Shown here one piece after another: positions 1-15,771 of a stretch of DNA of 18,682 bases. Below the pieces are notes generated by a model, which saw only the letters and a list, made by a program, of their open reading frames with translations, had not been told where the DNA came from and did not search any database. The stretch lies in the IMG/VR virus record IMGVR_UViG_2778261570_000014, one strand, 5' to 3'. Every line of letters starts with the position of its first letter. The stretch's first letter is position 1. Position numbers and translations under genes: made by a program. This DNA is from a virus (taxonomy: Duplodnaviria > Heunggongvirae > Uroviricota > Caudoviricetes).

Positions 1-1124
1 GTGGGCCACGGAACAGGCACACCAACGGGTAGCGCCGAGCCTTCTCCTAAACCAAGGTAATTGAGGACATCTTTTATACTGCCCTTAGCGATAATAGCGC
101 GACCAATAGCTGTAAGGGTTGTCAGCGCTGCGCGGTCTGCTCCGGTAAAATAAGGCAACCGATCTGCTGCAGTGGCAAGTCCTGCCAGAGCAGTGAGCGT
201 GGCATCTGCCGGTTGTTTTCCGTTTGCCAGATCGTATGCAGCCTTGACAGCTTTCGGTGTAGCGGCCAGCACTTCAGACGTGCTGTTAGTGGCACTACTG
301 AGCTGAGTGATGCCTTTCGCTGTCAATGAAGCTGTTGGCACACCAGTGATCTGATTCCAGGGATGTATATGATTGGATGGTGCCTTTCCGGCTGCTAGAT
401 CGTATGCAGCTTTAACCGCTTTTGGAGTTGCAGCTAATGTTTCAGAAGTGCTGTTGGTGTCGCTACTGAGCTGAACTATCCCTTTTTGTGTCGTGGTTGC
501 ATCCTGGGCTGTGTACTTCCCGTTAGCCAGGTCATATGCAGCCTTGACAGCTTTCGGTGTAGCCGCTTTTCTTTCTTCTGTACTGCTTATTTCATTAGAG
601 AATTCGACACCAACAGCCCGGTTAACCCGGTATTTAAGCACAATCATTTCTTTAGTCACAGCCGTTGCGCCGCTAGGCACGATAACTCGACATAATTCAA
701 TTTGATTCTGCCCAATAGTATTGTCCGTACGCGCGTAAATTCTTGCAGCACTGACAGAAGATGCGCTATCTACCTGTGTCGTTTTTACACCATGTTCAAA
801 ATTGGCTTCCAGCACAATAATGTTGGTAGCCCCTGCCTTTACCGAGACAGTCACATCTTCTATTTGCTGAACGGATATCTGAACATTATTTACATCTACT
901 GAAGCAGCCCCTTTACCTTCTGAGTTTTCAGAAGTTATGCGGACACTCAACCCTGTGCCGGGAACCGGTTCAAATCCACAGTAAAAGCCAGGCAAAACAA
1001 TATTTTTTAGTTTTCTGTTAAGAGCCAGACTACTATAGAGTTCGAAATATTGAACATCAGCAAGCAACGACTGTGAGACACCAGAGGATAGTGTCATTAT
1101 GTTGTTCGTTTTATCAGCCCCCAT
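1..1124 (-). CDS. Tail fiber protein, P2 gpH / lambda Stf type; N-terminal 374 codons only, C-terminal part lies beyond the window start
   Basis: Minus-strand frame is open from ATG at 1124..1122 to position 1. Translation has three copies of the phage tail-fibre repeat (KGIVQLSSDTNSTSETLAATPKAVKAAYDLA and variants), then GKQPADATLTALAGLATAADRLPYFTG...LTTLTAIGR and LPVGVPVPWP, matching P2 H / lambda Stf as I recall them. GAGGG 8 nt upstream of the ATG. Confidence 0.85.
   Translation of the reverse strand, partial: MGADKTNNIMTLSSGVSQSLLADVQYFELYSSLALNRKLKNIVLPGFYCGFEPVPGTGLSVRITSENSEGKGAASVDVNNVQISVQQIEDVTVSVKAGATNIIVLEANFEHGVKTTQVDSASSVSAARIYARTDNTIGQNQIELCRVIVPSGATAVTKEMIVLKYRVNRAVGVEFSNEISSTEERKAATPKAVKAAYDLANGKYTAQDATTTQKGIVQLSSDTNSTSETLAATPKAVKAAYDLAAGKAPSNHIHPWNQITGVPTASLTAKGITQLSSATNSTSEVLAATPKAVKAAYDLANGKQPADATLTALAGLATAADRLPYFTGADRAALTTLTAIGRAIIAKGSIKDVLNYLGLGEGSALPVGVPVPWP
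225..575 (-). repeat. In-gene degenerate direct repeats (about 150 bp) encoding the tail-fibre repeat motif, one partial plus three full copies
   Basis: Recurring DNA segments (e.g. around 200-310, 380-490, 520-570) that each translate on the minus strand to ...ATPKAVKAAYDLA. Confidence 0.6.
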
Positions 1125-1126
1125 AA

Positions 1127-1573
1127 TCAACCCTCAACTTGCTCGATTGTCATGAGAATACTGTAACGTTTACCTTTATAGAGGGTATCTTGCTGGGTGC
1201 AAAGCACACCAAAAGCCTGTTCCTCAGCATCAACAAGCACAAGCGTGTTAAAGTCGTAAGGCGTGTTATCCGGCATTCTTTCTTGAGGGAAGGCTGCATT
1301 GATCGTGATAATCCCATCCACGCTGGACAATATCAGATCGGACACAGCAAACTGTTGAGCGCCACTCAATTTAAAATCGAGCGGAATGTCCGCTATATTC
1401 CAGCCTCCTGCACCATTAGCAGTTACCAGACTAGATTTGCACCAATACGCCTTAGAGATAACAAAACGCGCACCTTTGCCGATCGCCGACTCTGCGCGGC
1501 GTGAATAATAGTAGGAAAGTAATTGCGCCTTATACAGGCGGTTACCATCTCTTGCCTTTAAATTTTCAGCCAT
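1127..1573 (-). CDS. Hypothetical protein (148 aa) immediately upstream of the tail fiber gene; likely baseplate or fiber-associated
   Basis: ATG start at 1573; stop 2 nt from the tail fiber start; co-oriented in the operon. No recognisable motif. The overlapping plus-strand ORF 1139..1504 looks less protein-like. Confidence 0.5.
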   Translation of the reverse strand: MAENLKARDGNRLYKAQLLSYYYSRRAESAIGKGARFVISKAYWCKSSLVTANGAGGWNIADIPLDFKLSGAQQFAVSDLILSSVDGIITINAAFPQERMPDNTPYDFNTLVLVDAEEQAFGVLCTQQDTLYKGKRYSILMTIEQVEG

Positions 1574-1638
1574 ACGAACATAGCCCCTTCATAAGCAATG
1601 AACCAAAGGAGAGTATGCTCAGTTTGTGATTTCCGTTG

Positions 1639-1664
1639 TTCTTCCCCCAAATGCGGGGGAAGAA
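1639..1664 (-). other. Intercistronic stem-loop (10-bp stem TTCTTCCCCC / GGGGGAAGAA, 6-nt loop) directly after the stop of the 281-aa gene
   Basis: Perfect inverted repeat seen in sequence; no U-tract follows on the minus-strand transcript. Confidence 0.4.
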
Positions 1665-1667
1665 TTA

Positions 1668-2513
1668 TTAAACAGATTGAAGGTGGTAATCCAAAGGCCA
1701 CGCATCGAGTGGGGTTACATCAAGATGTAATTGCTTTTCTGCCGTTCGGTTCGGTATGGCATTAAGAGAAATATTGTCTGCCTGGCAGGAGGTATCACTA
1801 CGGGATAGCATATCAGCCATACTCTCAGTAACATAAACACCTTCAATTACCGAAACATCCGTAGACAGGTAATTTAATATTTCTGCCACTTCAGGGAATA
1901 CAGCACTAAGCCGAAACGAGACGCCATCAAAAACAATATGCAATGGCAACAAAGGGGCTATTACTGTTTCGAAGTCAGATAACAATTTCTGCACAGCGGC
2001 TTCTTTATCCTGCTCTCCATATGAGCGATATAGCTTGTTCTGATCAACAACGACCAGCCCCCTTGATGTCAGGAAGAGCTCACCGAATTGAGCCTGTGCC
2101 GTAGGTATTTCTATTTCGGTCGCAAAATATGAACCATAGGGGTGTTTTTCTATATTTACAGGTGCATACAGCGGTTCCCAACTAACAGGAATACAACCGA
2201 ATTCACGCCAGAATGTCTGCTCAATAGGCAAGATAGTACCTTTAAAGTGCACTTCATCTAAACGCTGCGCCAGAAGCATTGGCCTACGGGCATTATCTTT
2301 TTCAGTGATAACGAAAAAACGCCCGTATTCAGCAATGCGGGCATCCATATCCTCACTGTCCATAGTGAAGAAGGATTTTCTGTTACTTATTCTTGTTAAT
2401 ATTGGTTCTACTGCCTCATTCCAGACATCCTGTAAAGCGTCTATAAATGCACTCCAGAGATGTGAATCCTGTTTTACTTTAGTTAATCGTTCCTTAAGCC
2501 AATTATCTTTCAT
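1668..2513 (-). CDS. Putative baseplate protein (281 aa), positional analogue of P2 gpI
   Basis: ATG start at 2513; sits between the baseplate-J-like gene and the fiber-proximal gene. Assignment is by position only. Confidence 0.45.
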   Translation of the reverse strand: MKDNWLKERLTKVKQDSHLWSAFIDALQDVWNEAVEPILTRISNRKSFFTMDSEDMDARIAEYGRFFVITEKDNARRPMLLAQRLDEVHFKGTILPIEQTFWREFGCIPVSWEPLYAPVNIEKHPYGSYFATEIEIPTAQAQFGELFLTSRGLVVVDQNKLYRSYGEQDKEAAVQKLLSDFETVIAPLLPLHIVFDGVSFRLSAVFPEVAEILNYLSTDVSVIEGVYVTESMADMLSRSDTSCQADNISLNAIPNRTAEKQLHLDVTPLDAWPLDYHLQSV

Positions 2514-2523
2514 GCTAACCTCA

Positions 2524-3954
2524 TTACGGGTAAGAAATGCTGAACGTTGAAGATTTTACGTTAAGATAAATGAAGTCATTAAAGTAAACAGCATCTTTCA
2601 TATTTTGTATTGTTATGTCGTAAGACAGAAACATATCCAGAGACTCTATTACTCGCCAAATATCCTTAACTTTTACCTGTGCATAACATTGCTGGGAATC
2701 ATCATCACTCTGTAGTAATAAACTGAATGATGACGAATCACGGCCAAAATTATCTTCCAACGCTGCTTTAATAGCATTTTGAGCATCGTCTATCAGAACA
2801 TTTTTACGTGCAATACCTATAAAATTTATAGTAAATGGCTGTTCATTTGTATCTACATACTCGAACCGCTTGTTCAACTCATTTGGAACATTCTCTAGAG
2901 CTTTCAGTATTTCTGATTTTAGCTGAGACTGGCTTACACCCGGCTTATGTCCGCAAAAGAAAATTTTGTTGATGTTTCGAACGTCAAACCCAGTTATTTT
3001 CTCTTGTAACGCTTCGCCCCAAACGTTCAACCATGAAGTTCCATGAACAACATTCTGAATGAATTGGCGATAATCACCGCCCCATACCACTTGTTCATCG
3101 TATGCAACATAATACTGAGCACGATTTCGAGTTTCTTCTGTAGTTTCCATACCACTACCACCGGTAATGATCGAATCAGTTTTAAACTCTAGTGACTCCA
3201 CATATTGAGCGATATTTCCAGCCGGTTCTAACTTTTGTCCTTCAGCCAAAGTATAGTCGCCAAGGCTAGCCATAACATCGATTCGAACCTGACAGCCTGC
3301 TGGAGGCATCATACCCATAGAACCATCACCAAACTTGACTCCAAGTTGTTCTGTAGGTTTATATGCCAATGAATAGTGCTTACTCTTGTCTCTGGACATT
3401 CTAAATAATGGGTTATATGTCCATTTTTCTTCTACTCCATCTGTAATAACATAAACATCCAGGCTAGAGACTTCTTTTGTTAACTCTCTGGAAAGCAACA
3501 ATGTCAGAAATAAAGTTTCCTTCTCAATATCAAACGTAATGCTAACAGCTTCATGCTGTTTAGTTTCTACGCCAGAAACAGTTCCTCCAGCAGGAATTAC
3601 AACACTGTTAATAATTGCCAAAGGTGTTTGGTCATTGGCAAGCAATTCAGCCCCGGCTGGTAACGTAATATCCCGATCAGTTTTATTTGTTATAGACGTT
3701 GTTCCGTATGAAGCACTAACAAATCGCCCTACGTAGCTACGGTCTTCAGCAACCGCTAAAATACTTGAGCGGCGCGTTGCCGTTGAAATAAGTCCCTCAG
3801 TGAGGCCGCGACTTGCAAATGTACGGGCAATATAAATAAGCTGCGATCCGAATATAGCGTGCATCTGCACAAACTGACTATTTACAAATCGTGACCACCA
3901 TGTATTTTCATTTAACTTGGCGTTAAATTTGTCCAGTAATTCTGTAATCGTCAC
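2524..3954 (-). CDS. Baseplate J-like protein (476 aa)
   Basis: Directly downstream of the gp25/GPW-like gene; C-terminal region loosely resembles P2 gpJ from memory. Apparent GTG start at 3954 overlapping the upstream stop (GTGA), consistent with translational coupling. Confidence 0.5.
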   Translation of the reverse strand: MTITELLDKFNAKLNENTWWSRFVNSQFVQMHAIFGSQLIYIARTFASRGLTEGLISTATRRSSILAVAEDRSYVGRFVSASYGTTSITNKTDRDITLPAGAELLANDQTPLAIINSVVIPAGGTVSGVETKQHEAVSITFDIEKETLFLTLLLSRELTKEVSSLDVYVITDGVEEKWTYNPLFRMSRDKSKHYSLAYKPTEQLGVKFGDGSMGMMPPAGCQVRIDVMASLGDYTLAEGQKLEPAGNIAQYVESLEFKTDSIITGGSGMETTEETRNRAQYYVAYDEQVVWGGDYRQFIQNVVHGTSWLNVWGEALQEKITGFDVRNINKIFFCGHKPGVSQSQLKSEILKALENVPNELNKRFEYVDTNEQPFTINFIGIARKNVLIDDAQNAIKAALEDNFGRDSSSFSLLLQSDDDSQQCYAQVKVKDIWRVIESLDMFLSYDITIQNMKDAVYFNDFIYLNVKSSTFSISYP

Positions 3955-4325
3955 GCGCCCACCCCACTTGATTTCTGCATAACAATATCCATGCTCCCAC
4001 CTTTCGCATAAAAACTAATTAATAAAGAATCTTCAGAAATTGATGTGCAACGAATCCCTTGCACATCCAAACCTGGCAAGTCTTGTCGTAGTTTTTTCAT
4101 CATTCTCCCTTCAATAGCCACTTCAACTATGTGCGAAGTTTCAGAGCCGAATGGTTCATGCTTAAATTCTTCCATTGGACTCCCCCAAGAGGGTAAACCA
4201 TAAACACTCCCTTCAGGGGTTCGTAGCCACTCGTCAAGTCGGGCCATCCATGCTGCGGTACTTCCTTCTGCAATAATGACACCGCTCTCATTCGTTTGAA
4301 GTCTTGCGTCTATTTCGTAAAGCAT
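3951..4325 (-). CDS. Baseplate wedge protein, gp25 / GPW-like (124 aa)
   Basis: Size and motif ...RLDEWLRTPEGSVYGLPSWGS... resemble the P2 gpW motif ...ILRTPVGSRVMRRDYGS... as I recall it. ATG at 4325, 5 nt after the stop of the large upstream gene. Confidence 0.6.
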   Translation of the reverse strand: MLYEIDARLQTNESGVIIAEGSTAAWMARLDEWLRTPEGSVYGLPSWGSPMEEFKHEPFGSETSHIVEVAIEGRMMKKLRQDLPGLDVQGIRCTSISEDSLLISFYAKGGSMDIVMQKSSGVGA

Positions 4326-4330
4326 CAGTA

Positions 4331-7300
4331 TTAATCCTCAAGCAGAGCATCCAGCGACTGGTCATTAATAGTTGTGCTCGCACGTGGTCGCGGCTGCGGC
4401 TGCGATGTTTTGACAACATTATCCGGATCGCCTTTTGTATTGTTCTTGTTCACATTCAGCAGATCGTTCAGGATAGAGCAGATGTTATCCAGCGCCTTCA
4501 ACATAGCAGGATCGTTATTTATAGTGTCAGTAGTTAATGGTTGTCTTATTCCGCTTCGTGCGAGATCGGTTACAGTAGGGAGTTGTGGCGGCATAGCAAG
4601 AAAAGGTTCTTGCACAGCTGAAGCAGAGCCAAATATGGCGTTATTGGCACCAGTTGCTATTCCCCTAATGCTATTAGCGGTTTGTTGAATCCCCCCATTC
4701 AGCCAGTCTCCAACATTTCTTGTTAATGGGCTAATAGCTCGCGCAATCGCACTATTCTGCCCAGTAGACTGCATTACAAGATCGTTCAATATCCCTGTAC
4801 TATCAATCCCCCCAACAAGTCGTGAAAGGTTATCGCCAACGGCAGGAATTACTGCGGTTCCTGTCTGTTTAAGCCCTGACACCGTGGAATCAAATAGCGA
4901 ACCAAAGAAGCTCTTATCCTCACCTGTAACCACCTTGTAGCCGTTGTCATAAATCTGCACATCACTTGGTGCCGTGATAGTTCGTTTTCCAGAGGTAACT
5001 ACTGGCGCAGCTCCCGCCATAGCCTGGCTGATTGCTAGAGCCTGCTCCTGCTGTGGGGTTTTCGGTGCAGGCGCTGCAGACGAAAAGCCCGCCATAGCCT
5101 GGCTGATTGCTAGAGCCTGCTCCTGCTGTGGAGTTTTCGGTGCTGGCGCTGCAGATGAAAAGCCCGCCATAGCCTGGCTGATTGCTAGAGCCTGCTCCTG
5201 CTGTGGAGTTTTCGGTGCTGGCGCTGCAGATGAAAAGCCCGCCATAGCCTGGCTGATTGCTAGAGCCTGCTCCTGCTGTGGAGTTTTCGGTGCTGGCGCT
5301 GCAGATGAAAAGCCCGCCATAGCCTGGCTGATTGCTAGAGCCTGCTCCTGCTGTGGAGTTTTCGGAGTAGAAGGGGATACTTGATCTCCCGGAAGTAGAT
5401 CAATGATTTCTGTATCGTGATTAACAGTGCGTTTTTGTTGTATGGCTGTTGCGATATCAGCCGCTTGAGAAGCTTTTTTAAATCCAAAAGATTTACCGGT
5501 TAAGCCGGATATCTTTTCAGTAAGAGCCTGATCCATTCCTTTCGCTTTTTCGGAAAGCGAAGATATAGAACCAAACGAAGTAGCCAACGCAAAATCCTTT
5601 ACCAGGTCCAGACTTGTTCCAGCAAGGCTGGTAGCCGCGCCGCCAAATAAATTACTTGCACCACTGATTCCGCTTTCATTTATTGCGATTAACCGCTCAA
5701 GCAAACTCGATGGAGAGCCGGTATTAACATCAGCGTTCTCTGGATTAATCGGTTGTGGTTGGTTACCTGTTTTTTGTGGCTTTTTGACTGCCTGGGCATG
5801 TTGTGCAACCTCAATTGGCTGTTGTGTTGCTGTCGGAACGGCATTCAAAACTGGTTGAGCTGGAGATTTTCCATTAGCATATTTTACCTTGCGACCAACA
5901 CTATATTGCGAATCGCGGGCAATTAGCTGACCACCATTTTCTTTCTGAATTTTATTAATCCGCGCCAATGTTTCGTCAGAGAATTGTCCCTCCCATAGAC
6001 CAGTGTTTGTGTTAAATGCTCCAAGTGCGTTCTTAATGAACTCATTATTAACTGCCGGATTTCCGCCTTCTTTCGTCGCAATTGCACGAACTAATTGCGT
6101 CATAACCTCTGGTTTGCTGACATCTATTTTTTCATTAGGCGATACACCAAGATATTTACTGACGTTATCAATATATTGGTTAGTATTGTTCTCATTTGGC
6201 GGTGCCCATTTTGAAATGATGCTGGATACCGTCTGTAACTTCTGATATCCCGCTGCGGCACTGGTGCCGTTGTAATAGCTGGAAACCTGGTTTGCCAGTG
6301 CCCTGATCCCTTCTTCAGGTGTGTTAAATCGCGCAAAACGTTGTTCACCTTTTGCATTTGGCGATTCCAGCGTCGCCCCTTCCTGGTTGGCAAAAACAAG
6401 ATTGCCGAGATTATTATTTCGGTAATTGCGGTTTTTAGCGTTGCTGCCGCCAATATTCAGATCCGCTGCAATGGTGTTGTTGGCAGGTGAACTAAATTCA
6501 GTTGGAGAAGTATACCCGTGCTCACCAACTCCATCCTCGCCATTACGCCCACCTTGTAATTGTTCACCTAGAGAATGAATCGCATCGACAGTTTTTTTGG
6601 TGCCGTCTTCAACAGCTTTTTTTACTTGTTTCGTGTTTTCGTCAGTGGATAAAAATGTATCCTTAAGGCTACCAAAAACAGATTTGGTGATATCTACCGC
6701 GCCGTTAACACCACGAGCAATATCTCCGGTATCAAAATTCTGAAGTTTTTCACCTGCTCTTTCAAATCCTAGCGCAGAAATTCCTTTCCCTATCAAGTTC
6801 GTTGCGCCCGACACCAAGCCCCCCATATCGAGCACATTAGCTGTTGCGTAAGCCGTTTTTTGCTGTTCGGCTACAGCATCATCGTCACTTAATCCAAAGG
6901 CTGCCTTTTGCGCATCTGTATCAGTGTAACCATCTATAGCGTCATATCCCGCCATAGCCAGCGAACCGATGATAGGGATAGCTCTTGCAGCTGTAGAAGC
7001 AGCTGATTTAACACCTATTTTTGCAGCACTTTTGAGGGCTACGGATTCGGTTTTTTTCTTTGCAACAGTTTCACCTGTTTTAACTGTGGCCTCTTCGGCA
7101 ACAACACCTGCTGGCTTAACTGCCTTTGCTGTGTTTTTTGTTTCTTTAGCAATACCCTTAGATGCGTCGCTTGTGGTGCTGATGTCTTTGGCTTTACTAA
7201 CCTTTGTTTTAACAGTCTTTGCAGCTCCGGCACCAGCTCCAGCAGCAGCGGTTCCGGCAGCGGCTTTTTCACCAACAGTAAGGGCTTTTTTCCCCAGATT

Positions 7301-8461
7301 GCGACCTTTCCTTTTCGGTTTGTTCCGTTTATTTTTACCAGCCTGATCGCCAATATTGATTTTATTTCTTCTGCTTGCTCGATTTCTCCAGAGATCACTT
7401 AAGCCGAACTTATTCCCAGAAGATACTGATTTGCGTAGCTTAACTACTTCGTCGGAGACATTTTCCAGACCATCAATTATTTTGTTGTCATTGGTCTGAA
7501 GAATTTTTGTTTGCTCTTCTACTGCTTGTGCTGATTTTGTCTCAACAGCATTATTAAATGCTGTTGCAGAGGTTGCTTTTTGAGTATTAACCACCGCCGG
7601 ATAAGTGATAGCTGGAGATGTCGCTTTCGAAGGTGAAGCCTCACCTTTCCCCTTTTCTACCCATTCTTTAAGAGATTCTGCTTTACCTGTGATCTCTTTA
7701 GTAATGTCGTACATGCCGCGAGCAGCCATCCACAACGGACCACCAGCGCCAACACCTGCGGCATCTGTTAAAGACTCTTCACTGGAAGACTGATTGCCAT
7801 CTACCCCTATAATGGAGCCTAATTTCCGGAGGAAGCCTTCTTGTAGTTTGGCGTCGGCCTTATGTGCTTTCTGCCATTCTTTTTTTCTGGCTATATCTTC
7901 GTTGTTTTTCTGGGATACAAAGCGTCCGTTACTATCCCGAAGCGGTCCTTTTTGGCTTTGGGGGGATTGTGGTTCAAGAGGAGCAGAATTAGCGGCTAAT
8001 GGCACAGAACCTTTCAACTTTTGGGCTGACTGGCGTGATGACGCAAAATGAACGCGCTCTGATGTGTTGGTTGCAACAATGAGACGTTCTTCTCCGTTGT
8101 TGACCTGCGTCCTCCCTTTTTTCATCGGAAGGCGTTTTATATATGGGTTAGCTTGGGTATTCTTGGCATCATCAGAGACATAGGGTTCGCTTGCTATGAG
8201 TCTACGGGATAGTCTTTGACTTACTTTACCTTGATTTTCACCAAGTTGAGTTATAGACCCTCTACCAGAGAGAATGGCGTCTTTGATCTCAGCAAGAGCG
8301 TTAAGTTCGTTTGTGCTCGCCCCCTGAATAGCGTCAATTATTGCGATACGGTCTTTATTCTCTTTCAAAATAACCTCTCTTTTGCCAGCGGCGATCAACG
8401 TTTCCCGGCTTGAGCTTTGTATTTTTCTTCCAGGGCTTTTGACATATGGAGTGCTCGCCAT
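4331..8461 (-). CDS. Large virion protein (1376 aa), tape-measure-like or structural injection protein
   Basis: Long ORF immediately upstream of the baseplate genes. Contains a Lys/Ala/Gly-rich low-complexity region, a globular segment (NNLGNLVFANQEG...GIRALANQV...WAPPNENNT...) and five 25-aa tandem repeats. ATG at 8461. Confidence 0.6.
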   Translation of the reverse strand: MASTPYVKSPGRKIQSSSRETLIAAGKREVILKENKDRIAIIDAIQGASTNELNALAEIKDAILSGRGSITQLGENQGKVSQRLSRRLIASEPYVSDDAKNTQANPYIKRLPMKKGRTQVNNGEERLIVATNTSERVHFASSRQSAQKLKGSVPLAANSAPLEPQSPQSQKGPLRDSNGRFVSQKNNEDIARKKEWQKAHKADAKLQEGFLRKLGSIIGVDGNQSSSEESLTDAAGVGAGGPLWMAARGMYDITKEITGKAESLKEWVEKGKGEASPSKATSPAITYPAVVNTQKATSATAFNNAVETKSAQAVEEQTKILQTNDNKIIDGLENVSDEVVKLRKSVSSGNKFGLSDLWRNRASRRNKINIGDQAGKNKRNKPKRKGRNLGKKALTVGEKAAAGTAAAGAGAGAAKTVKTKVSKAKDISTTSDASKGIAKETKNTAKAVKPAGVVAEEATVKTGETVAKKKTESVALKSAAKIGVKSAASTAARAIPIIGSLAMAGYDAIDGYTDTDAQKAAFGLSDDDAVAEQQKTAYATANVLDMGGLVSGATNLIGKGISALGFERAGEKLQNFDTGDIARGVNGAVDITKSVFGSLKDTFLSTDENTKQVKKAVEDGTKKTVDAIHSLGEQLQGGRNGEDGVGEHGYTSPTEFSSPANNTIAADLNIGGSNAKNRNYRNNNLGNLVFANQEGATLESPNAKGEQRFARFNTPEEGIRALANQVSSYYNGTSAAAGYQKLQTVSSIISKWAPPNENNTNQYIDNVSKYLGVSPNEKIDVSKPEVMTQLVRAIATKEGGNPAVNNEFIKNALGAFNTNTGLWEGQFSDETLARINKIQKENGGQLIARDSQYSVGRKVKYANGKSPAQPVLNAVPTATQQPIEVAQHAQAVKKPQKTGNQPQPINPENADVNTGSPSSLLERLIAINESGISGASNLFGGAATSLAGTSLDLVKDFALATSFGSISSLSEKAKGMDQALTEKISGLTGKSFGFKKASQAADIATAIQQKRTVNHDTEIIDLLPGDQVSPSTPKTPQQEQALAISQAMAGFSSAAPAPKTPQQEQALAISQAMAGFSSAAPAPKTPQQEQALAISQAMAGFSSAAPAPKTPQQEQALAISQAMAGFSSAAPAPKTPQQEQALAISQAMAGAAPVVTSGKRTITAPSDVQIYDNGYKVVTGEDKSFFGSLFDSTVSGLKQTGTAVIPAVGDNLSRLVGGIDSTGILNDLVMQSTGQNSAIARAISPLTRNVGDWLNGGIQQTANSIRGIATGANNAIFGSASAVQEPFLAMPPQLPTVTDLARSGIRQPLTTDTINNDPAMLKALDNICSILNDLLNVNKNNTKGDPDNVVKTSQPQPRPRASTTINDQSLDALLED
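5010..5366 (-). repeat. Tandem direct repeat, 75-bp unit in about 4.75 copies, inside the large virion protein gene
   Basis: GCCATAGCC recurs at 5016, 5091, 5166, 5241 and 5316 (period exactly 75). The middle copies are identical and the first differs at a few positions. Encodes (APAPKTPQQEQALAISQAMAGFSSA)n in frame. Confidence 0.9.
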
Positions 8462-9583: not shown

Positions 9584-9701
9584 GGTGTAAGATTTGCCCT
9601 CAATTAAATACGATCGGTGTAAGATTTGCCCTCAGAAGGTGTAAGATTTGCCCTCAAAAGGTGTAGTAATTGCCCTCAAAGTGGTGTAAAAATTGCCCTC
9701 A
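9584..9701 (+). repeat. Iteron array: five direct 19-bp repeats (consensus GGTGTAAGATTTGCCCTCA) upstream of repA
   Basis: Copies at 9584-9602, 9616-9634, 9638-9656, 9660-9678 and 9683-9701. The first three are identical; copies 4 and 5 differ at 2-3 positions. Spacing 32, 22, 22, 23 bp. Confidence 0.85.
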
Positions 9702-9725
9702 CCATTTGAAGGATCACACAGGGTT

Positions 9726-10481
9726 ATGAACAGAGCGGAATTAACAGCAAAAGCCGTCAGCCTGATTGAGTCAGCGACACCTATTAGTCGTAGTCTGGCA
9801 CAAGCCAATGAGATCACGGAGGCTGCTTATCACCTGACTCGCGACCAAAAGCGACTGTTGTTTATTGTGGTGGGAAGACTTCGCTATGCTTCTAAGGATG
9901 GCGTTCTTGGTTCAGGTGCCTGTGAGTTGACGGTCAACGAATATGCAGAGATGTATAATTTGCCCTCTGCTGAAGCCAGCAAGGATATTCGTAAGGCCAT
10001 TTCAGGGCTTAGCGAGAAGAAAGTTACGATATATAACCCTGATGAATCGACCGAATCAGAAGACAGTTATGAGTCTTATCCCTGGATGATTAAGGATGCC
10101 TATTCACCACGGCGCGGGACTTACATTATTCATCTTAATCCATATCTCATGCCGTTTTTTACTCTGCTTGATAAGAGATTCACAAGGCTGAATTTTACCG
10201 AAGTATCTCGCCTTACAAATCCTTATTCTATGCGGCTTTATGAGTCCTTATGCCAGTACAGGAAGGATGATGGAAGCGGCTTTGCCATACTTGGCGTCGA
10301 ATGGATGCGGGAGCGTTATGGGTTACCAAAAAGCTATCAGCGGTATGCCGAATTTAAGAGAAGTTTTTTAACGAAGGCTGTAGCAGAGATTGAAAAAAAT
10401 ACAAAAATGAAAATAGTCTTCTCAGAGGTGACGGAAGGCGGCAAAGTTACCAGGATAAAATTTACCTATCAGCAGTCTTAA
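9726..10481 (+). CDS. repA: Replication initiator RepA, Rep_3 family (iteron-binding)
   Basis: 251 aa from ATG 9726 (the ORF track starts at an in-frame TTG at 9693 inside iteron 5). Flanked by iterons; resembles pSC101 RepA from memory (LTRDQKRLLFIVVG..., NPYSMRLYESL..., C-terminal KVTRIKFTY). Only gene on the plus strand in a minus-strand cluster. Confidence 0.85.
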   Translation: MNRAELTAKAVSLIESATPISRSLAQANEITEAAYHLTRDQKRLLFIVVGRLRYASKDGVLGSGACELTVNEYAEMYNLPSAEASKDIRKAISGLSEKKVTIYNPDESTESEDSYESYPWMIKDAYSPRRGTYIIHLNPYLMPFFTLLDKRFTRLNFTEVSRLTNPYSMRLYESLCQYRKDDGSGFAILGVEWMRERYGLPKSYQRYAEFKRSFLTKAVAEIEKNTKMKIVFSEVTEGGKVTRIKFTYQQS

Positions 10482-14112: not shown

Positions 14113-15771
14113 TCAGCGCATCAGAATTGGCTTACCGACGATTCGGCGAGCTGTACCGGTCGGACAAACAGACCAGGCCACTTCCCACAGATCGATGTCC
14201 TTTTGGACAACCTGAACAACATATGGATCTTCACCCTGGGACTTGTCACGTGGAGTAACCAGCGCACCGGCTGCAACGTAACGGTCAAGCAATTCAGTCA
14301 TTGCTTTCATTAGCGCTTCTTTGGTAATGCCATCCGGTTCGTGCTTAATCGCCTGAGCTACTTCATAGAAATCTCTGGCGATGGCGTTCATCAAGGAAGA
14401 CACATGCTGGAATCGCAGATAGTTGTTTTTGCTGTAAGTTGTTAAAGAGTCGTCAATGTAAACGGACCCGTCAGCAGCAACTGAAACTGGATTAATGCGC
14501 GCAAGAACGAACGCTTCACGATCAACTGCACCGATATTTGGAATTCGGGCAATGTTCTGTCGATCAATAATCGCGCGTGATATACCTGCCGGTGCGTAAT
14601 GCCAACCACCAACATCCGGTACCAGCGCCACTCCTTTTGCCTTCGCTACGAATGCGTCGCAGCTAATGCCATAGACGACATTCATTCCAGTGAAAGTATC
14701 TCGGCAGGAGAGCGGGAAGTAGTAACGGCTTGGTTGATGTGAGCCGCCAAAACTATGGCTTTTCGCTTCTGAAATAGCGTTTTCAGGTGTCTGGTTGCCC
14801 TTCAGGTCATAGAACATGTCTACGCGAACATCTTCAGCCAGCTTTTTGATTGCGGCTAAGGCGGATGCGTCATAACAACCCAATGACAGCAATGCGGTGT
14901 AATTAACCTCTGAAGCTTCGAGAACCTTTAATGCTTCCAGATAGTCTGCAGCGGCAATTTCGGACAGATTTCCATCAGTACCACCTTCAAAAGCCACATC
15001 CTCAAAAATGAGTTGAGCAGCGGATGCTTCTGCATTATCTGCCAGTACGGCACCAATGCGAGTGGACTGGCTTTCAAGCAGTGTCGGAATCCATGCTGGT
15101 TGGCCCATGTCGTTGGTGCCTTCTGGATTGAAAGACACTTGGTGGCTTTCCAGCACCTCAATGGACCCATCGGTTTTTTTTTCTTTCAGCGTCAGCGTAA
15201 AGAGTTCGCTTTCTTCATCATCGCGAGTTAGTGATAACGTGCGATTTTGAGATGCATCACCATCTTTGATGAAGAATAATGCCTTCTCTCCACCTTTAAT
15301 CTGGGGCGTCTCTTTGGGTGTGAAGGTCACTGATTGAGTCGTTGCAGTTGGAGCAACACCAACGCTTAATGTGTCACCTGGATTTGCTGTGGTTTCAGTA
15401 GGTTCAACGGAAAGTTCTTTGCTCGCCTTTGCCGCTTTTGCTTTGCCCACAACGGAAACAGAAATACCCGGCACCTTCATGTCTTTAGCGCAAACTCGAA
15501 CGACATATCCAGAGCCGCCTTTTACTGCACGCTCCACGTGGCGATATGGTTCAAATGCCGCGCCCAGGCGAGGGTGAATCGGTGAACCTAATACGCTTTG
15601 ATAAGTCGTATCGTCAACTTTCAGTACCTTACCCGGTGCGCCACGACGCGATATTACAAGCCCAGCAAAGACGGATGCGCCACCGCTGGTATTGGTGAGG
15701 GTAGCGTCAGCATTTACTGACATTACAGCAACGCCAGCTGCCTGCCCTACCGAAAAACTAATCTTATTCAT
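14113..15771 (-). CDS. Tail sheath protein (552 aa)
   Basis: Size and the C-terminal domain resemble T4 gp18 from memory (WHYAPAGISRAII vs WMSPAGYNRGQI; ...INPVSVAADGSVYIDDS...). ATG with GAGGA upstream; followed by tube-like genes. Confidence 0.7.
   Translation of the reverse strand: MNKISFSVGQAAGVAVMSVNADATLTNTSGGASVFAGLVISRRGAPGKVLKVDDTTYQSVLGSPIHPRLGAAFEPYRHVERAVKGGSGYVVRVCAKDMKVPGISVSVVGKAKAAKASKELSVEPTETTANPGDTLSVGVAPTATTQSVTFTPKETPQIKGGEKALFFIKDGDASQNRTLSLTRDDEESELFTLTLKEKKTDGSIEVLESHQVSFNPEGTNDMGQPAWIPTLLESQSTRIGAVLADNAEASAAQLIFEDVAFEGGTDGNLSEIAAADYLEALKVLEASEVNYTALLSLGCYDASALAAIKKLAEDVRVDMFYDLKGNQTPENAISEAKSHSFGGSHQPSRYYFPLSCRDTFTGMNVVYGISCDAFVAKAKGVALVPDVGGWHYAPAGISRAIIDRQNIARIPNIGAVDREAFVLARINPVSVAADGSVYIDDSLTTYSKNNYLRFQHVSSLMNAIARDFYEVAQAIKHEPDGITKEALMKAMTELLDRYVAAGALVTPRDKSQGEDPYVVQVVQKDIDLWEVAWSVCPTGTARRIVGKPILMR

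Follow-up and report, generated by a model that had tools for sequence, protein, structure and literature searches.

The DNA stretch analysed here, referred to as the window, comprises the 18,682 nucleotides (nt) of the IMG/VR virus record IMGVR_UViG_2778261570_000014 and corresponds to contig NLMT01000086.1 of the draft assembly GCA_002228995.1. Its closest phage is Escherichia phage D6 with 88% nt identity, and many non-mobilizable plasmids of approximately 90 kb from Escherichia coli, Shigella and Salmonella match it at 95-99%; by these matches, the window is part of a D6-like E. coli phage-plasmid. It carries tail tube and sheath genes as well as the gene order pmgB-like, sit-like, pmgA-like and bplA-like, the sit-like gene being the largest tail gene. 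Inside this Sit-type gene lies a tandem array of 75-nt units, which we regard with near certainty as a hypermutable, always in-frame variable-number tandem repeat (VNTR).

Tandem Repeats Finder locates the array at 5013-5365 with a period of 75, 4.7 copies, 98% matches, 0 indels and a score of 685, and a second repeat search returned the identical register, which confirms, apart from a slight shift of the borders, the repeat at 5010-5366 that had been noticed in an initial annotation of the bare sequence. Perfect periodicity extends over 284 nt (5082-5365). Copies 2-4 (5088-5312) have one and the same sequence, which the partial fifth copy shares, while copy 1 differs at 3 positions, all of them synonymous. 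The array is in frame within the minus-strand open reading frame (ORF) 4331-8461, which encodes 1376 amino acids (aa), and specifies residues 1033-1150. Translation of this ORF gives four identical units of PKTPQQEQALAISQAMAGFSSAAPA followed by a fifth helix core, PKTPQQEQALAISQAMAG, so that the proposed in-frame unit of 25 aa is correct. Chance is no plausible explanation for such an array, which moreover recurs at this site in many independent assemblies. The plus-strand ORF 4974-5384 (136 aa) was considered as a gene and rejected; it is the mirror of the repeat and has marginal PHROG matches (E≥3e-4, no significant stretch).

Each unit has a single Phe and no Trp in its 25-aa period and can be read as a helix of approximately 14 residues, QQEQALAISQAMAG, with a T-P N-cap, followed by the Pro/Ala-rich linker FSSAAPAPKTP. 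An AlphaFold2 model of residues 937-1376, calculated with 15 close homologues, displays five helices of 12-14 residues at 25-residue spacing with coil between them; this model is unreliable (mean predicted local distance difference test score, pLDDT, of 34 and predicted template-modelling score, pTM, of 0.16) and was used for the helix periodicity only. Among 81 units from the fetched loci, we distinguished 16 DNA variants with 10 variable sites, five of them synonymous and five with conservative replacements (Q8L, L10I, S13N, A17E and A22V). The B-type unit fills four of the five cores of the window and has its own synonymous single-nucleotide polymorphisms (SNPs), one of which occurs in only one other sampled unit. 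That a unit with its own synonymous SNPs occupies most of the array indicates a recent expansion in the lineage of the window, as had been suspected from the identical middle copies.

The copy number was compared among relatives by a census in which only the two unique flanks were used as query against complete E. coli genomes. It retrieved 50 plasmids with the repeat-bearing allele, whose flanks are mostly 97-99.6% identical to those of the window (five at 91-95%). These plasmids contain between 1 and 17 helix cores, with a unimodal distribution at 5-6: one core was found in 3 plasmids (FDAARGOS_1059 and O111:H2 12A are one-core examples), two in 3, three in 2, four in 7, five in 9, six in 9, seven in 5, eight in 2, nine in 4, ten in 2, eleven in 1, fourteen in 1 and seventeen in 2. 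Hence, the five cores of the window represent one of the two commonest states among complete plasmids (9 of 50). All array lengths follow n×75+53 nt except for four records with 9-12 extra nt, for which small flank indels are our explanation. Among the fetched loci, this site has no unit in D6 and 1, 2, 3, 5, 8, 9, 11, 14 or 17 helix cores in plasmids, and 120 cluster representatives in the protein database, including entries from Shigella, Salmonella and E. fergusonii, have 0-7 cores. In nearly all repeat-bearing full-length homologues the last core begins 240 aa from the C-terminus (243 in a few). No compensating length change elsewhere in Sit was found among the database proteins, in which the length minus 25 × cores amounts to 1251-1275 aa. 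Taken together, units of 98% identity vary in number between close relatives while the flanks stay largely the same, as is typical of a VNTR; an invariant copy number, which would have spoken against the initial annotation, is clearly not what was found.

Two further observations belong to this comparison. In NZ_CP195333.1 (E. coli strain 11, a linear record of 120,008 bp), two matches to the sit flanks occur approximately 25 kb apart, one with 13.7 repeat copies and the other spanning an equal length; this record exceeds the usual 90 kb and was deposited as linear, and it may be a rearranged or over-assembled phage-plasmid. A location of the repeat at a mosaic recombination boundary was also considered. 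BLAST matches covering only query positions 683-4131 turned out to be an effect of joining repeated pieces, the C-terminal DNA of L005, one of these matches, is nearly identical to that of the window by direct alignment, and the idea was rejected. True downstream divergence is restricted to the D6-type allele, which has no repeat.

Changes in copy number can also be seen within one strain. Five complete assemblies of strain Ec-050, which stem from a serial-subculture context (PMC11039899) and whose designations T0, T5 and T20 we took from their names as a subculture series, contain the same plasmid with 10.7, 8.7, 4.7, 4.7 and 4.7 copies. The plasmid of T0 comprises 90,446 bp with a sit gene of 4581 bp and, written as a string of unit types, the array CDEFDEFGEH (10.7 copies); that of T5-MAC comprises 90,296 bp with a sit gene of 4431 bp and the array CDEFGDEH (8.7 copies); and those of T5-ESBL, T20-MAC and T20-ESBL comprise 89,996 bp with a sit gene of 4131 bp and 4.7 copies, which read CDEH in T20-ESBL and also in the other two, since they share its protein accession. 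Relative to T0, the other plasmids are exactly 150 or 450 nt shorter, corresponding to 2 and 6 units, whereas no substitution separates the gene flanks of T0, T5-MAC and T20-ESBL on the downstream side of the array (682 nt) or on its upstream side (3090 nt). Unit G has a private SNP that also occurs in arrays of the unrelated isolates strain 11 (13.7 copies) and MLI108K1 (16.7 copies), which implies that the long arrays are ancestral. If the first of the identical E units in the longer arrays crossed over with the last, the expected product would be CDEH. Part of these differences could stem from a starting culture that was mixed or from choices made in assembly, but steps in exact multiples of 75 nt and a consistent order of the units speak for real variants. 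Hence, the easy gain and loss of units predicted in the initial annotation is supported at two scales, among the 50 plasmids and across the subculture assemblies of one strain. The instability is not uniform, since other sets of isolates with similar names or the same source (MLI108K1/K2, WCHEC0351xx, AR_011x and SX4/48) have one copy number within each set. It may rise with array length.

The coordinates of the array, of the Sit-type gene with its predicted domains and of the neighbouring genes are compiled in the table.

Table. Features of the window around the 75-nt array, with the evidence for each assignment
Feature	Coordinates	Strand	Evidence
75-nt tandem array, 4.7 copies	5013..5365	-	Tandem Repeats Finder, repeat search, unit listing and translation
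Sit-type gene, 1376 aa, 'tail injection transglycosylase', probable tail tape measure	4331..8461	-	PHROG 7182, D6 orf40, P1 Sit literature
C-terminal domain of Sit-type protein, last 226 aa and stop codon	4331..5011	-	core positions; PHROG 7182 positions 1007-1228
Predicted muralytic (lysozyme/transglycosylase-like) domain, residues ~675-815	6017..6439	-	PDB 7q47, 9vvp, PHROG 873, 2276, tblastn
Conserved region with hydrophobic stretch, residues 474-617	6611..7042	-	tblastn to P7 sit, PHROGs 2533, 24683, 21630
pmgA-like gene, directly downstream of sit; inner baseplate wedge in P1 (PMC9024508)	3951..4325	-	PHROG 1896, D6 annotation 'similar to P1 gene pmgA'
bplA-like baseplate J/wedge gene	2524..3954	-	PHROG 1369, D6 annotation
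pmgB-like gene, directly upstream of sit; proposed tape-measure chaperone in P1 (PMC9024508)	8516..9337	-	PHROG 1854, D6 annotation
Sheath gene	14113-15771		PHROG profile search

Residues 32-1376 of the protein align with PHROG 7182 ('tail injection transglycosylase'; E=0), and its D6 orthologue orf40 is annotated as 'similar to P1 gene sit'. The supposition that the host gene resembles a tape measure thus fits its identity as a homologue of Sit, the tape-measure candidate. Searches of Pfam and NCBIfam with the Sit-type protein gave no match, and PHROG 2276, labelled 'tape measure', matches the muralytic domain only. The latter domain was recognised through the endolysin 7q47 (E=1e-15) and Gp29 in 9vvp (E=4e-13) from the PDB and through PHROG 873 and 2276; its tblastn matches are endolysins and internal virion proteins. 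The Sit-type protein accordingly has the recognisable, here predicted, muralytic domain of a virion-associated peptidoglycan hydrolase. The array is placed between this domain and the last 226 residues, which presumably form the baseplate-proximal end of the tape measure. Two alleles of the C-terminal domain exist, with either ~100% or ~76% aa identity, and the 76% D6-type allele is always without the repeat. Only residues 474-617 show tblastn similarity to P1/P7 Sit (42% identity).

At the other end of the protein, divergence within the Sit-type family is greatest in the N-terminal 460 residues (39-100% identity). The sit ORF of the window starts at 8461, so that 54 nt separate it from the stop codon of the pmgB-like gene, a spacing shared by the Ec-050 plasmids; in other lineages, for example CP135715 and D6, the annotated start is 40 nt farther upstream and the gap shrinks to 14 nt, which makes 8461 a tentative start. 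Approximately 20 listed homologues (P0046, P0036, P0063 and others) have 1057-1138 aa and differ from the window protein with regard to its residues 1-217. P0046, for example, begins at a Met aligned to Ile218 and is otherwise 94% identical. These short homologues are either N-terminally truncated, split genes, or the result of later start calls. Upstream of the pmgB-like gene, four 22-nt direct repeats, GGTGTAAGAATTGCCCTCAAAA (x3.9), were found at 9616-9701, directly upstream of and overlapping the start of a 262-aa ORF at 9693-10481 (+). This ORF matches RepE/RepB-family replication initiators (NCBIfam PRK13742, E=1e-83, under the curated cutoff), and the 22-nt repeats are conserved in relatives. 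They are probably the iterons and the initiator of the plasmid replicon, situated between the pmgB-like and tail tube genes.

Length changes are not restricted to the 75-nt array. The Sit-type gene of the window also contains an in-frame micro-repeat of 12 nt (x 2.4) at 7221-7249 (-), which encodes part of the Ala/Gly-rich AAAGTAAAGAGAGAAK and was detected by Tandem Repeats Finder on L030 with subsequent conversion of the coordinates. The homologue P0046 has 4 aa fewer at this site, and the flanks of some plasmids show length differences of 9-12 nt. Moreover, the Sit homologue of IMGVR_UViG_2908543018_000007 (L022), a protein of 1293 aa that is 71% identical in the best aligned segment and lacks the 25-aa repeat at the C-terminal site, has a perfect repeat of 108 nt (x 3.1) at 1702-2037, whose unit of 36 aa, GKKAAAGTATVAGGGAAIKAGKDVAVKTGEEVALNT, belongs to the N-terminal Ala/Gly/Lys-rich region. 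The independent repeat in L022 and the micro-repeat indicate that length plasticity recurs across the protein family and is not tied to one motif. On the sequence level, the Sit-type family tolerates or exploits length change in general.

What such length changes mean for the virion depends on the role of Sit. Mass spectrometry detected the Sit protein of phage P1 (1140 aa) in virions, and the role of tape measure was assigned to it (PMC9024508). Cryo-electron microscopy (cryo-EM) work on P1 also lists Sit as the tape measure protein (TMP), though it was not resolved, and reports its loss on contraction (PMC12810830). The tail tube of P1 has 53 rings with a rise of 40 Å and a lumen of 40 Å (PMC10304247). 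Since 53 rings × 40 Å must be measured, the 1140-aa Sit of P1 has to span approximately 2100 Å, i.e. approximately 1.85 Å per residue. This value exceeds the extension of an alpha-helix, which suggests that there is no spare chain and that the whole Sit counts toward length.

On this basis, we propose that the array is a hypermutable in-frame VNTR in a Sit-type protein that is at once tape measure and ejected muralytic protein, and that tails lengthen with the number of copies; in our judgement this complete reading has somewhat better than even chances. Recombination or replication slippage between identical 75-nt units would add or remove whole units, and each gain or loss would make the protein 25 residues longer or shorter while always leaving the reading frame intact. 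If Sit is the tail ruler in D6-like phages, as proposed for P1, its C-terminal 226 residues would presumably anchor the protein in the baseplate hub, and the array would be stretched in the lumen of the first tube rings, just above the baseplate-bound C-terminus. Tube and sheath would polymerise along the tape measure, and one unit at 1.5-1.85 Å per residue would add ~37-46 Å, approximately one 40-Å ring. Across the 1-17 cores found in nature, tails could then differ by up to ~60-75 nm. Shifts of tail length in 25-residue steps, as the initial annotation had envisaged, are plausible by analogy with other phages. The same annotation had opposed a tape measure to an injected protein in which the repeat serves as a flexible linker; this is a false choice, because Sit-type proteins are thought to be both.

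Internal in-frame length changes in the tape measures of lambda and T4 altered tail length. In phage TP901-1, tail length responds linearly to deletions and duplications in the TMP, whether these lie inside or outside its repeats, and the phage often tolerates them (PMC5099701). The array of the window resembles these TMP repeats in being in-frame and internal and in changing protein length by gain or loss, with tail length linear in TP901-1 (PMC5099701), whose authors propose the repeats as natural facilitators of duplication and deletion (PMC5099701). The TP901-1 repeats are degenerate at the DNA level, have 11 or 18 aa and are marked by Trp/Phe, whereas the array consists of 25-aa units of near-identical DNA, is located C-terminal to the muralytic domain and belongs to a contractile-tailed phage. 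The recurrence of Trp/Phe every 11 or 18 residues is absent from the unit of the window, which with its single Phe, lack of Trp and 25-aa period falls outside the TP901-1-type aromatic repeats. Furthermore, a 2026 survey found that TMPs of myoviruses are mostly without tandem repeats (PMC13585406).

P1 Sit and the Sit-type protein of the window share the same tail-module position (pmgB-sit-pmgA-bplA), a length of more than 1000 aa, an internal muralytic domain, the conserved region of residues 474-617 with its 42% identity and the PHROG label 'tail injection transglycosylase'. However, most of the D6-type sequence has no similarity to P1/P7 Sit detectable by tblastn, and the muralytic domain of the window matches endolysins and internal virion proteins, not P1/P7 Sit. 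The texts of PMC9024508 and PMC12810830 do not mention a 25-aa repeat in P1 Sit, a result that concerns these papers and not the P1 sequence, which was not inspected. D6 orf40 is the orthologue with the same neighbours (88% nt and 83% aa identity); it differs in that the repeat segment is absent, ~45 aa being replaced by EKIPVNSRG, and in having the other C-terminal allele (~76% aa identity).

Several points weigh against our proposal. The tape-measure role of Sit has itself been deduced from size, position and virion mass spectrometry, and the protein is not resolved in the cryo-EM maps of P1 (PMC12810830). The D6-type Sit shares nothing but residues 474-617 with P1/P7 Sit, at 42% identity. 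The proline-broken unit, modelled with a pLDDT of ~30-50, may fold back or be compressed in the 40-Å lumen and would then add much less than 1.5 Å per residue. The segment is missing from D6, which makes it dispensable. Since 75 = 3×25 keeps the frame by construction, intact ORFs are uninformative on selection. In a plasmid prophage, selection does not act on the gene, and long arrays could reflect neutral or even harmful drift.

The last point leads to an alternative according to which copy number varies by neutral or mildly harmful drift, the gene being silent while the element exists as a plasmid, and the repeat has no adaptive role; long arrays may then mark elements that make poor virions or none. 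We consider this unlikely, albeit with a serious chance. It agrees with the changes between plain agar subculture assemblies, in which no phage selection acted, with the automatic preservation of the frame and with non-synonymous changes at 5 of the 10 variable unit sites. This ratio of 5:5 is still lower in non-synonymous sites than neutrality predicts, and an expansion has taken place in the lineage of the window. Moreover, the distribution among the 50 plasmids is unimodal at 5-6 cores and has not collapsed to 1; the laboratory series points to a deletion bias, yet intermediate lengths prevail, so something may maintain them. In any case, drift is compatible with an effect on tail length, and with either structural model, and disputes the adaptive value only.

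As the main alternative, the array may be a flexible spacer without influence on tail length, being held in the lumen or in the hub with an unchanged number of rings. It would then matter only after ejection, for example for the reach between the C-terminal domain and the muralytic domain on the peptidoglycan, or not at all; the C-terminal domain would exit first and may engage the inner membrane. The composition of helix and Pro/Ala linker and the low-confidence model resemble a linker, the segment is missing from D6 and flanked by two conserved blocks, Sit is ejected together with its muralytic domain, and by our own capacity estimate the 40-Å lumen could accommodate folded-back helices. Nevertheless, a pure spacer appears rather unlikely to us. 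To our knowledge, tail length was altered by internal in-frame changes in every tape measure tested so far, and in TP901-1 this included changes outside the recognised repeats (PMC5099701). The ratio of P1 tube length to Sit length leaves no slack, and an additional 400 residues in each chain could hardly be concealed.

Finally, the repeat or its copy number could be an assembly artefact, which is hardly credible: although the window comes from a draft assembly, is perfectly periodic over 284 nt and has counterparts in four IMG/VR contigs (L008, L024, L026 and L017) that start or stop inside or beside the array, the repeat recurs at this position in dozens of complete plasmids that independent laboratories contributed, its lengths fit n×75+53 nt and unit variants are common to different arrays, so that uncertainty is left only in the exact count of the window contig, which could depend on the assembler.

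Returning to the proposal that tail length follows copy number, the array also resembles bacterial contingency loci and VNTRs of surface proteins, in which near-identical in-frame units shift in number within laboratory passages and between otherwise identical strains. It differs from them in that on/off switching is impossible, since the frame is never lost; by analogy, the expected effect would be graded and would concern a part of the virion and not a cell-surface antigen. An extension of the proposal, which we regard as quite improbable at present, is a fast-mutating 'tail-length dial': recombination in the Sit array would continually yield lysogens whose tails differ by whole tube rings over a range of ~60-75 nm, and the array would be kept near 5-6 units because the thickness of host envelope, capsule or O-antigen favours different tail lengths or reaches of the ejected protein. 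If true, such a dial would represent a contingency locus in a virion structural gene, heritable yet rapidly reversible.

It is established that tape measures can contain tandem repeats and that the length of the TMP is linked to that of the tail (PMC5099701, PMC13585406). We found no earlier description of the 75-nt array in the searchable, limited literature. It is an unusually dynamic example of the known tape-measure repeats, and the concept itself is not new. In practical terms, the array breaks or is miscounted in short-read assemblies of a common phage-plasmid family of E. coli, Shigella and Salmonella, and plasmid size moves in 75-bp steps between subculture assemblies of one strain. 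Hence, it could serve as a fast typing marker and is likewise a source of spurious plasmid "differences". If tail length indeed follows copy number, nature provides a ready series of alleles with 1 to 17 units, several of which do not differ in their sit flanks, and this series could be used to probe the tape-measure rule in an ultra-long contractile tail and to find out which end of Sit is measured. The same series could reveal whether tail length affects host range or infection efficiency.

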